This document shows positions 34,909-47,795 of a stretch of 64,000 nucleotides of DNA, in pieces. Made by a program: the position numbers and the translations under genes. Source of the DNA: a virus (Duplodnaviria > Heunggongvirae > Uroviricota > Caudoviricetes); IMG/VR virus record IMGVR_UViG_3300045988_163275, positions 1 through 64,000 of that record. One strand, given 5' to 3'. Positions within the stretch are counted from its first letter, which is position 1. Each line of letters opens with the position of its first letter. A model generated the notes under the pieces. It worked only from the letters and a program-made list of their open reading frames with translations. It had not been told where the DNA came from and did not search any database.

Positions 34909-34927
34909 CATAAGTAAGTACTTACAA
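34909..34927. repeat. TAAGTA-type palindrome
   Basis: cataagtaagtacttacaat; upstream of 34476..34871. Confidence 0.5.
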
Positions 34928-46177: not shown

Positions 46178-46774
46178 TTATGACAAAAACCCAATGTCAT
46201 GCTTGTGAGGCATATCAGCTGCGGAATAGGCGGCGATCTTCGCCAGACGGTCACACATTTCGTTCTCGCGATGACCTGCATGGCCTTTAACCCACTTCCA
46301 GCGGACATTATGACGACTGGCGGCCGCGTCGAGACGTTTCCAGAGATCCACGTTTTTGACTGGCTTCTTCTCAGACGTGATCCATCCGTTACGCTTCCAG
46401 CCTTTCATCCAGAGCGTCATGCCGTTTTTAAGATACTGGCTGTCGGAATGCAGGATCACGTTGCAGGGGTACTTCAGACGCTCCAGCGCAATCAGGGCGC
46501 CCATCATCTCCATCCGATTGTTGGTCGTGCTGTGGAAGCCCTCAGAAAGCTCGCGCTCTTCGCCTCGATACTGGAGAACGATGCCGTAACCGCCCGGCCC
46601 GCCCGGATTTTTGAGGCAGGAGCCATCACTGAATACTTTTACGGTTTTGAGCTGGGGATTGAACTCGACTACGGGTGTGTTGAAATTGGTACGGGAATGC
46701 TGGTGGGTTTGGCATCTGGCTTTAGACTTCGTGCGGCAGCCAGTGCGTTGCCGGACTGGGTTCTTGGTCGTCAT
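46178..46774 (-). CDS. rnhA: ribonuclease HI
   Basis: Close match to E. coli RnhA pattern ([20 protein letters not shown]...[12 protein letters not shown]...[11 protein letters not shown]...[10 protein letters not shown]...[18 protein letters not shown]); about 40-aa basic N-terminal extension; RBS GGAG. Confidence 0.85.
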
Positions 46775-47350
46775 TTTGGCTCCAGAATCGTGCGCCGCGA
46801 CGATTTTTGTTTTCTCGCGCGTGTGCGCACGCGTGCGTGTAAATAATAAAAAATTTTATAAAAGAAAAACTTACTTCCCAGAACAGGTTTTAATAAAACC
46901 TGAACTGAACGAACGAAGTGAGTGAAGTTCACCTCGAACGAAGTGAGAGGTTGTCTTTTCAGGTAATACTCTCCCAGGGAGGTGAGTACAAAATTTCCTC
47001 ACCAACCTGGTCGTTTCATAACCTGAAAAGTTATGACCTAAGTCTACTGCCAGCTTAGGCTTGGGAAGTTATGGATGACAGCACCCCAGAACCGAGATCT
47101 TCCCACACTTTATGAAGGGGAGTACTGGAATCAACCTCTCGAAACACTCCAGACTCGACAATCATAAAGTGACCCTTCTCTCTGCTCACTTTGGTTCCCC
47201 CTTCCCCAACCCCTAAACGGTGCTGGTTCTACGCTGGTAGTGAGCTTTTTTAAACCTGACGCCAGTGACGCAATCCCCCACCCATCAGGTCGAGCTGCCG
47301 AAAGTATCCGGAAGCGGATAGATTGTATCACTGGTTAGTGGCGCTTTGAA

Positions 47351-47368
47351 TGGTAAGTACTTACCTAT
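47351..47368. repeat. TAAGTA-type palindrome
   Basis: tggtaagtacttacctat; overlaps the stop codon of 47368..47598. Confidence 0.5.
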
Positions 47369-47598
47369 TATATTGATTGATTAATTTCTCGCCCATGCAG
47401 CTGGACATTCAGAGCAAACACCTCATTGATCAGCTCACCCAACAACTGCTCCACCAGTTCTATGTGCTCGCCTGAATGAAGACACTTGAGCGACCATTCG
47501 TAGAGACTGAAAGCCTTATCGCGATCTTTCATCATGTCGCGTATCTTGGCCAGAAAATCGCTCTCAACGAGCGCTACGACGTTCGTCGGGTATATCAT
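47368..47598 (-). CDS. hypothetical protein
   Basis: 76 aa ORF downstream of the 17-bp IR hairpin element. Confidence 0.4.
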   Translation of the reverse strand: MIYPTNVVALVESDFLAKIRDMMKDRDKAFSLYEWSLKCLHSGEHIELVEQLLGELINEVFALNVQLHGREINQSI

Positions 47599-47714
47599 GA
47601 TAATTTTCCTTACTGTGGTTCATAAAATCGATTCTAGAGCGTCTGGAGAGGGACTCCAGTGGGTTCTGGAGGTGTAAAACGGTCTGGGAGTTGTTTGGAA
47701 ATCACGTCTTAAAA

Positions 47715-47795
47715 AGCCTGCGTCTGTATATATTAATAATTAGTACTTAGTTATTTATATATACGGAAGCAGGTTCTCAAACTAACTCCCAGACT
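47715..47795. repeat. 80-bp element: 17-bp inverted repeat around a TAAGTA-type palindrome (copy B)
   Basis: CCTGCGTCTGTATATAT ... ATATATACGGAAGCAGG then TTCTCAAACTAACTCCCAGAC; right arm identical to copy A; immediately 3' of dam. Confidence 0.7.

Follow-up and report, generated by a model that had tools for sequence, protein, structure and literature searches.

Evidence for an unannotated structured RNA gene on the minus strand upstream of rnhA in SSU5-like phage-plasmids

SSU5-like phage-plasmids, of which pHCM2 of S. Typhi is one, are common in clinical Enterobacteriaceae and can carry resistance genes. The 64,000 nucleotides (nt) of viral DNA analyzed here, positions 1 to 64,000 of IMG/VR record IMGVR_UViG_3300045988_163275 and hereafter called the window, are from such an element. 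In the window a gap of 593 bp (46775-47367) separates an open reading frame (ORF) of 76 amino acids (aa) from rnhA, the gene for RNase HI, and the order methyltransferase, 76-aa ORF, gap and RNase HI runs entirely on the minus strand. What does a gap of this size contain, on which strand does it act, and does it serve the gene that follows it? A reading made from the letters alone (the sequence-only reading) had proposed a gene-free segment with repeats and hairpins, a candidate structured RNA or cis element. We find that the segment very probably holds an unannotated non-coding RNA gene of ~455 nt, transcribed on the minus strand from ~47315 to ~46858, and that its central part is transcribed in a lysogen of a close relative.

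The gap region is 95% identical to that of Salmonella phage SSU5 and 94% identical to that of Escherichia phage Cyrano (pLF82). It was found on 687 PLSDB plasmids and in 12 phage records, at 85-99% identity, the plasmid carriers being the gut bacteria Klebsiella, Escherichia, Enterobacter, Salmonella (106.7-kb plasmids, as large as pHCM2), Citrobacter and Cronobacter. It is carried by 232 of 5426 complete E. coli genomes, nearly always on plasmids of 105-115 kb, and no annotation was ever placed under these copies. We aligned 59 distinct homologues, drawn from 69 IMG/VR loci together with SSU5 and Cyrano. The alignment has a near-invariant core, from ~47270 to ~46870, with variable flanks on both sides. 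Calculated per 50 nt, homologues differ pairwise by 0.055-0.12 on average in the core and by 0.13-0.30 in rnhA, the 76-aa ORF and the methyltransferase gene, so that the core is 2-4 times less variable than the flanking protein genes, their synonymous sites included. A non-coding stretch that varies so much less than its neighbours is under direct selection, here a purifying selection stronger than that on the adjoining genes for proteins. The RNA is thus better conserved than the surrounding replication genes, and the most conserved non-protein element of SSU5-like phage-plasmids has been left unannotated or mis-annotated.

The region is strongly folded. Compared with shuffled sequence, the region folds with z = -5.8 on the minus strand and z = -4.4 on the plus strand. 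RNAalifold predicted 140 pairs, 16 of them with compensatory change; the structure trimmed to the RNA has 127 pairs in 18 helices (H1 to H18), with 99.5% of 7360 cells canonical, 13 compensatory pairs and 182 cells changed on both sides. Compensatory cells numbered 54 ± 8.5 in shuffled controls and 2-23 when pairing partners were slid by 1-3 columns, a procedure that preserves phylogeny. The compensatory changes are carried by H1, H2, H3, H8, H14 and H18, most other helices being invariant. A search for pseudoknots by all-against-all covariation was swamped by clade-specific substitutions.

The same alignment assigns the strand. Variable pairs often pass through G-U, as UA/UG/CG in H3, GU/GC/AU in H4 and H14, and UG/UA in H2. 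Such variants pair on the minus strand only, since on the plus strand they become C-A mismatches; when the structure is transferred in mirror image from the minus to the plus strand, its non-canonical cells rise from 138 to 908. The RNA therefore lies on the minus strand and not on the plus strand, which the sequence-only reading had implied. That reading had seen a hairpin GCTCACT...AGTGAGC followed by TTTTTT on the plus strand. The helix is real and covaries, as part of H3, and it is no plus-strand terminator, because its G-U variants pair on the minus strand only and the T-run is there the A-run that precedes the helix. A stem-loop GAGGTGAG...CTCACC proposed in the same reading is likewise real, being the tip of a long hairpin, whereas TCATAAC...GTTATGA is able to form but is not the pairing of the consensus fold.

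The region is non-coding. A 44-aa ORF (47055-47189), annotated in Cyrano as CYRAN_81, is frameshifted in 11 of the 59 homologues and shortened in 5, and its GUG start falls within helix H3; a second 44-aa ORF and a 66-aa ORF are disrupted more often still. None of the other ORFs in the region is informatively conserved across the 59 homologues, and those that survive are trivial (14-21 aa), lack an ATG with a Shine-Dalgarno sequence and lie in invariant sequence. With all three of the longer ORFs broken in many homologues, the gap from 46775 to 47367 is indeed free of genes for proteins, as had been supposed. We consequently rejected CYRAN_81 as a protein, its ORF being broken in some relatives and placed inside a structured RNA. 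In Cyrano the CYRAN_81 'hypothetical protein' (locus L002, 4265-4399) is an ORF within the RNA.

Evidence of transcription comes from a published strand-specific RNA-seq re-analysis of E. coli LF82, whose phage-plasmid is Cyrano (PMC9928086). There CYRAN_81 is listed among the 'morons' expressed in the lysogen, 12-fold over local background in LB (PMC9928086). Over five conditions its log2(fpkm+5) ranges from 6.8 to 10.35: 6.8-6.9 in stationary LB, 9.0-9.3 in B1, 8.2-9.0 in MB1, and a peak of ~10.3 in MB6, after 6 h inside macrophages, all given in the S1 table (PMC9928086). The neighbours CYRAN_80 and CYRAN_82 lie between 2.6 and 5.8, with 3.1-5.8 for the upstream 76-aa gene and 2.6-5.0 for RNase H (PMC9928086). 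From this table, the centre of the RNA exceeds both neighbours 10- to 40-fold in every condition, rnhA RNA in Cyrano lies more than 10-fold below the RNA core, and the CYRAN_81 signal rises ~11-fold inside macrophages. The central part of the RNA is therefore transcribed in a lysogen of a 94%-identical relative, and the published expression support for it had been taken as that of a protein gene. Our literature search found no paper that describes an RNA at this locus, the Cyrano expression table being the only relevant data. A stable transcript and conservation in related genomes were the two observations on which the sequence-only reading had staked its candidate: a transcript is present in this relative, and both sequence and structure are strongly conserved. 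That reading's central proposal, a structured non-coding RNA, is accordingly borne out by a segment that is non-coding, covarying and transcribed.

The features of the RNA gene and of its surroundings are collected in Table 1. Its promoter is of the sigma-70 type, TTCAAA-17-TGaTACAAT. All type A lineages (those with a region like that of the window) have TTcAaA or TTTACg at -35 and a fixed spacing of 17 bp, with a spacer sequence that diverges completely; at -10 (TAnnAT) the T, A, A and T positions are invariant in the 59 sequences, and most lineages have TG before it. The base of the 5'-terminal hairpin H1 lies ~7 nt beyond the -10 element, the position of which would place the transcription start at this base, at ~47315 ± 3. 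H1 exists in at least four unrelated sequence versions, every one of them a hairpin, with compensatory change in 5 of 8 pairs, and it also forms when folded alone. A terminal hairpin of variable sequence is a pattern of stable bacterial RNAs.

Table 1. Coordinates of the RNA gene, its predicted helices and neighbouring features (window positions unless a locus is given).
Feature	Position	Strand	Basis or remark
76-aa ORF	47368-47598	minus	5' neighbour of the gap
Palindrome GGTAAGTACTTACC	47352-47365	none	directly after the stop of the 76-aa ORF, just upstream of the RNA -35
-35 hexamer TTCAAA	47345-47350	minus	promoter scan
Extended -10 TGaTACAAT	47322-47330	minus	promoter scan and alignment
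H1, 5'-terminal hairpin	47294-47315	minus	pairing kept, sequence varies
H2, 15-bp hairpin, G-rich apical part GGGUGGGGG	47253-47291	minus	covariation
A-run before H3	47246-47251	minus	
H3-H5, branched domain	47184-47245	minus	covariation
Central multi-helix domain, closed by long-range helices H6/H7	46945-47182	minus	most conserved part
H8-11	47106-47171	minus	hairpin in central domain
H12-13	47062-47105	minus	hairpin in central domain
H14	47036-47060	minus	hairpin in central domain
H15-16	46956-47029	minus	hairpin in central domain
3' Y-shaped domain, H17 and H18, closed by ACUUCG/GGAAGU	46877-46944	minus	z = -5.1
H17	46910-46940	minus	
H18	46877-46909	minus	UA/GC swap
AAG and U-rich tail AAGUAAGUUUUUCUUUUAU	46858-46876	minus	sequence conservation ends here
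Alternating pyrimidine/purine tract, 26 nt, perfect	46816-46841	none	Z-DNA-prone by sequence
rnhA leader: variable A-run, small GC hairpin, GGAG Shine-Dalgarno 7 nt before ATG	46775-46815	minus	
rnhA (RNase HI)	46178-46774	minus	3' neighbour of the gap
GTAAGTACTTAC, perfect copies	22362, 34914, 47353		
GTAAGTACTTAC, copies with 1 mismatch	27894, 41712, 46158, 48411, 53254		
GTAAGTACTTAC, copies with 2 mismatches	9 further sites		
Type B loci	L163:3383-3866; L164-L168		pMB7868_2, pCAV1752-111, pKqq_SB1124_3 and others

Downstream of H1, hairpin H2 (z = -3.5 when folded alone) is paired in 100% of cells, with three pairs that swap AU/GC or CG/UA and one that changes between UG and UA. In H3, alignment columns 99:157 pair as UA in 33 sequences, as CG in 16 and as UG in 9. 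The central domain has compensatory pairs in H8 and H14 and two invariant GNRA tetraloops, GGAA and GAGA. A 13-nt repeat, CGAACGAAGTGAG, occurs in two exact copies, at 46910-46922 and 46935-46947 (25 nt start to start), both of them invariant in the 59 sequences; the first (46935-46947) shares sequence with H17 and with the strand that closes the central domain, and the second, CUCACUUCGUUCG, falls within the Y-shaped 3' domain. The tandem GAACGAAGTGAG units noticed earlier reduce to these two 13-mers and form no array, Tandem Repeats Finder reporting none. The U-rich tail is the putative 3' end of the RNA and would act as a non-canonical terminator or a processing site; the terminator scan found no canonical intrinsic terminator at the type A 3' end.

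Does the RNA depend on the gene that follows it? Two of the loci (L073 and L077) have an intact RNA and two inserted genes (222 and 315 aa) in place of the 5' half of rnhA; the insertion, at 1217-2829, replaces the first 96 rnhA codons directly downstream of the RNA, and two plasmid matches (H115 and H118) show the same replacement. The 3' flank of the RNA thus appears to be a hot spot for insertion or replacement by accessory genes. Furthermore, ~30 Klebsiella phage-plasmids (among them pCAV1752-111, pMB7868_2 and the K. oxytoca pCAV plasmids) carry at the same position a different region of ~480-530 nt, which we call type B, in a lineage whose 75-aa protein and RNase HI are each 53% identical to the window versions. 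Neither blastn nor nhmmer found sequence similarity between types A and B, and type B matches no Rfam family. Its fold nevertheless reaches z = -7.3, with 146 predicted pairs, 15 of them compensatory among six sequences. Type B resembles type A in its synteny (methyltransferase, 75-aa ORF, RNA, rnhA), its strand and its size, and in both types a palindrome (TAAGTA...TACTTA) and a -10 element come ahead of the RNA, which begins with a 5' hairpin. It differs in that its helices follow no obviously similar plan, it has no downstream alternating CG tract, and a terminator-like element (A-tract, hairpin and U7) is embedded in its long 3' hairpin, the segment upstream of this element being complementary to the segment just downstream. 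Type B is either a homologue or a replacement of type A. Two type B plasmids have a convergent 148-aa gene instead of rnhA and keep the RNA, so that both RNA types persist where rnhA is lost. A related Moellerella phage-plasmid has the 75-aa gene and lacks both the RNA and rnhA.

To which known RNAs can it be compared? No family reached its gathering score when the whole 64-kb window was scanned with the Rfam 15 covariance models, which included ROOL, GOLLD, ribozymes, riboswitches, c4, 6S, tmRNA and RNase P RNA; the matches at E <= 1 are chance miRNA-like ones, to an AT-rich hairpin outside the RNA. A search of the window found no tRNA or tmRNA. Searched with an nhmmer profile built from the type A core, neither the 169 loci nor the rest of the window yielded a remote copy, the extra matches being self-matches from the long palindromic hairpin only. 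Type III toxin-antitoxin RNAs (ToxI-like) consist of tandem repeats of ~34-36 nt upstream of an endoribonuclease toxin. This possibility was rejected: Tandem Repeats Finder returned nothing, there are two 13-nt copies only, and the downstream gene encodes RNase HI. A type I toxin mRNA (hok-like) was rejected as well, all ORFs being disrupted in some homologues. A structured non-coding RNA gene is expected to show helices supported by covariation on a single strand, conservation of its promoter and transcription, and all three are found here, with RNA ends that we infer. The RNA is a new family of large, phage-borne structured non-coding RNA, of a known kind with no assigned function. It adds an enterobacterial and genetically tractable case to the short list of large bacterial non-coding RNAs without an assigned function.

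How, then, might the RNA act? We tentatively favour, at a little under even chances, a trans-acting mode that depends on structure, and rank both extended antisense pairing and an rnhA leader function below it. The RNA has its own sigma-70 promoter, begins with a protective 5' hairpin (H1) and folds into ~18 helices; in this mechanism the folded RNA would act in trans during the plasmid-prophage state, most likely by serving proteins as a binding scaffold or decoy, or else through its tertiary structure. We favour it because loops and stems are equally near-invariant and two GNRA tetraloops are fixed, and because the RNA persists whatever lies downstream and has no extended complementary target in the 64-kb window. 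The combined statement, a stand-alone structured RNA gene of the minus strand acting in trans via its fold, is in our judgement evenly balanced.

Several points weigh against this interpretation. Much of the core is invariant, so that ~70% of the helices rest on thermodynamics alone, and clade-specific substitutions mimic compensation in many unrelated column pairs; because clade structure can fake compensation in this way, we relied on the slid alignment as the sole fair control. The quantified part of the RNA is a 135-nt central segment only, and the published profiles are drawn strand-specifically while the strand-specificity of the per-gene counts is unstated (PMC9928086). The ends of the RNA are placed by inference, and with no canonical intrinsic terminator at its 3' end what accumulates could be the stable 5' portion of a transcript that extends further. 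Complementarity was assessed in the window only, 64 kb of an element of ~110 kb, and the RNA may yet form short seed pairings with host or phage mRNAs. A protein partner is so far a supposition.

The main rival, which we hold to be unlikely, is a cis-acting leader or attenuator. Transcription would mostly stop or be processed at the U-rich 3' end, regulated read-through would control rnhA and the accessory genes beyond it (Ant in SSU5, TciA/B in Cyrano), and the abundant RNA would be a stable 5' product. The RNA does lie directly upstream of rnhA on the same strand, with no separate sigma-70-type promoter detected for rnhA; type B embeds its terminator-like element; and some relatives have antirepressor-type genes at a greater distance behind it (Ant in SSU5; for a type B plasmid, a Rha-family regulator). 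Attenuation also predicts, and explains, the more than 10-fold excess of the RNA over rnhA, but it does not explain why the RNA persists intact before a shortened rnhA or, in type B, before a convergent gene. Furthermore, the genes downstream of rnhA differ among SSU5, Cyrano and the window while the RNA core is near-invariant, ~455 nt of such sequence far exceeds the needs of known attenuators or of put/EAR-type elements, and type A lacks a canonical terminator at its 3' end. A related proposal, put forward in the sequence-only reading, is that of a base-pairing immunity RNA. The P1/P7 c4, P4 CI and N15 CA immunity RNAs are ~70-100 nt long and are excised from an operon leader. An RNA of this kind, or a piece processed from it, would base-pair at sites within an antirepressor operon or a lytic one and so silence that operon in the lysogen; for the present locus we think this improbable. 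Like them, the RNA belongs to the lysogenic state of a phage-plasmid, is expressed in a lysogen and heads a run of co-directional genes that includes an antirepressor in some relatives, such as Ant in SSU5, and type B shows complementarity across its embedded terminator. However, at ~455 nt it is 5-6 times their size, it has its own promoter and 5' hairpin instead of being excised from a leader, it is conserved as a whole and not as a short seed, and it is kept whatever lies downstream. No antirepressor (icd/ant) follows it immediately in the window, where rnhA does; Ant was found in SSU5 only, four genes beyond rnhA, and is absent downstream in the window and in Cyrano. The window holds no complementary target repeats, the best perfect complement in a k-mer search of the RNA against it being 12 nt (E > 1, chance level), and a duplex prediction against the downstream leader, which gave global duplexes weaker than those of shuffled sequence, was an uninformative test. 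The immunity analogy thus fails on size, on architecture and on complementarity in the window.

A replication primer or R-loop origin RNA like ColE1 RNA II is a further rival: a G-rich transcript would form a persistent hybrid at an A-rich tract and be cut by the adjoining phage RNase HI. The likeness lies in a structured, G-rich transcript of similar size (~500 nt) with G-runs GGGUGGGGG and GGGGUUGGGGAAGGGGG, heading toward GAGAAAACAAAAAUCG and followed by a Z-DNA-prone tract and the RNase HI gene. Yet neither a switch in GC skew nor iterons, nor any other signature of an origin, were found at the site; no conserved antisense RNA I-like promoter was seen over the 5' stem-loops, the sole plus-strand promoter-like site (47346-47374) pointing away from the RNA; and the G-runs, which the consensus fold places in pairs, do not survive as runs across the homologues. 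The RNA is also retained when rnhA is lost, and the elements carry repA (Cyrano repA primers are listed in PMC9928086). The primer model thus fails on the antisense promoter and gained no support as regards an RNase H-dependent origin, and we consider it highly improbable. That no RNA function exists at all, the conservation reflecting a DNA-level cis element, a recent recombination sweep, a small protein or a type I toxin gene, we regard as very improbable indeed. The core is uniform enough for a sweep to be conceivable, and the 44-aa ORF is intact in most relatives and annotated as a protein. Set against this, compensatory and G-U changes preserve helices on one strand only, the ORF suffers the disruptions described above and starts inside H3, type B, an unrelated sequence in the same place, covaries as a structure too, and the region is transcribed.

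Returning to the trans-acting, structure-dependent RNA that we favour, a bolder version of it, doubtful but worth stating, is that the locus is home to large RNAs of a new class which rely on their tertiary structure, exist in at least two sequence-unrelated forms (A, and B in Klebsiella), and would serve as an RNA machine or ribonucleoprotein of the lysogenic state and have its expression wired to a network of dispersed GTAAGTACTTAC operators. Examples of such an RNA would be a ROOL/GOLLD-like RNA-only assembly, a ribozyme, or a decoy by which a factor or a defence system of the host is neutralized. With ROOL (RF03087) and GOLLD (RF01998) the RNA shares a length of hundreds of nucleotides, a multi-helix and ORF-free make-up, residence in temperate phage genomes, stronger conservation than its surroundings, fixed GNRA loops and the lack of an assigned function. 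Unlike them it is shorter, has no adjoining tRNA genes and has its range in Enterobacteriaceae phage-plasmids, and it gives no Rfam match to either even at E <= 1. Whatever its mode, the RNA is a cheap and concrete target for questions of phage-plasmid maintenance, of the choice between lysogeny and lysis, and of host interaction.

The dispersed motif just mentioned is a palindrome, GTAAGTACTTAC, in an extended form roughly ATAGGTAAGTACTTACCTAT, with 17 copies in the 64 kb against 1.0 expected; GGTAAGTACTTACC, upstream of the RNA, is one of them and is degenerate in the E. coli clade. All the sites inspected are intergenic; they directly follow stop codons or precede the next Shine-Dalgarno sequence by 10-25 nt. 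In several cases a -10-like hexamer follows 4 nt on, for example TATAAT right after the rnhA stop, which puts the palindrome at about -22, in the promoter spacer; the site at 34914 has TTGTAT-N17-GATAAT. Copies with a mismatch in one arm speak for a DNA-binding site, either a prophage operator or an activator box, more than for an RNA hairpin. On the plus strand, a promoter-like site TTGAAT-17-TATATT (47346-47374) has its spacer filled by GGTAAGTACTTACC. Its -35 overlaps the -35 of the RNA promoter back-to-back, and its transcript would be antisense to the 76-aa ORF. The overlap may make the two promoters mutually exclusive and so form a switch, or the site may match by chance.

On the other side of the RNA, the sequence-only reading had pointed to a palindrome, CGCACGCGTGCG, next to an A/T-rich stretch. 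It is present at 46826-46837, inside the alternating tract (0.03 expected by chance), but tract and A/T-rich spacer lie downstream of the RNA, outside its core and in the rnhA leader. The 26-nt tract is unique in the window and never arose in shuffles. Among type A homologues alternation is kept where bases differ or where the tract is longer, and type B regions have no such tract. The tract may influence the promoter or leader of rnhA, or it may be a place where recombination is frequent. An A-run (46802-46813) between the tract and the rnhA ribosome-binding site differs in length among homologues.

The 76-aa protein upstream matches only a function-unassigned PHROG and has no Pfam match, and single-sequence AlphaFold2 gave a three-helix model of low confidence (pLDDT 63.5). 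The phage RNase HI has a basic N-terminal extension of ~40 aa (46655-46774, rnhA codons 1-40), outside the Pfam RNase_H domain, which covers residues 44-182. Nothing else in the locus varies as much as this extension, which reaches a diversity of 0.45 and is lysine-rich in the type B lineage. Genome contigs scanned with the rnhA protein yielded only chromosomal host RNase HI genes (50-62% identity). In SSU5 (NC_018843; locus L001, 5392-6156) the 'Rnase H' coding sequence is over-extended to 254 aa from a GTG, and runs through the CG tract into the 3' end of the RNA.

Beyond the RNA gene, a long AT-rich inverted repeat, CCTGCGTCTGTATATAT...ATATATACGGAAGCAGG (47708-47781), with a U-run on the minus strand, follows the methyltransferase gene and probably terminates transcription in both directions. 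AGTACT, which forms the core of the dispersed palindrome, is found in its loop, and the repeat is the source of the spurious miRNA-like Rfam matches. Finally, another Cyrano 'hypothetical protein', CYRAN_43, which has not been mapped to the window, stands 723-fold over prophage background in the lysogen (PMC9928086) and may be another mis-annotated RNA or a toxin-antitoxin component.

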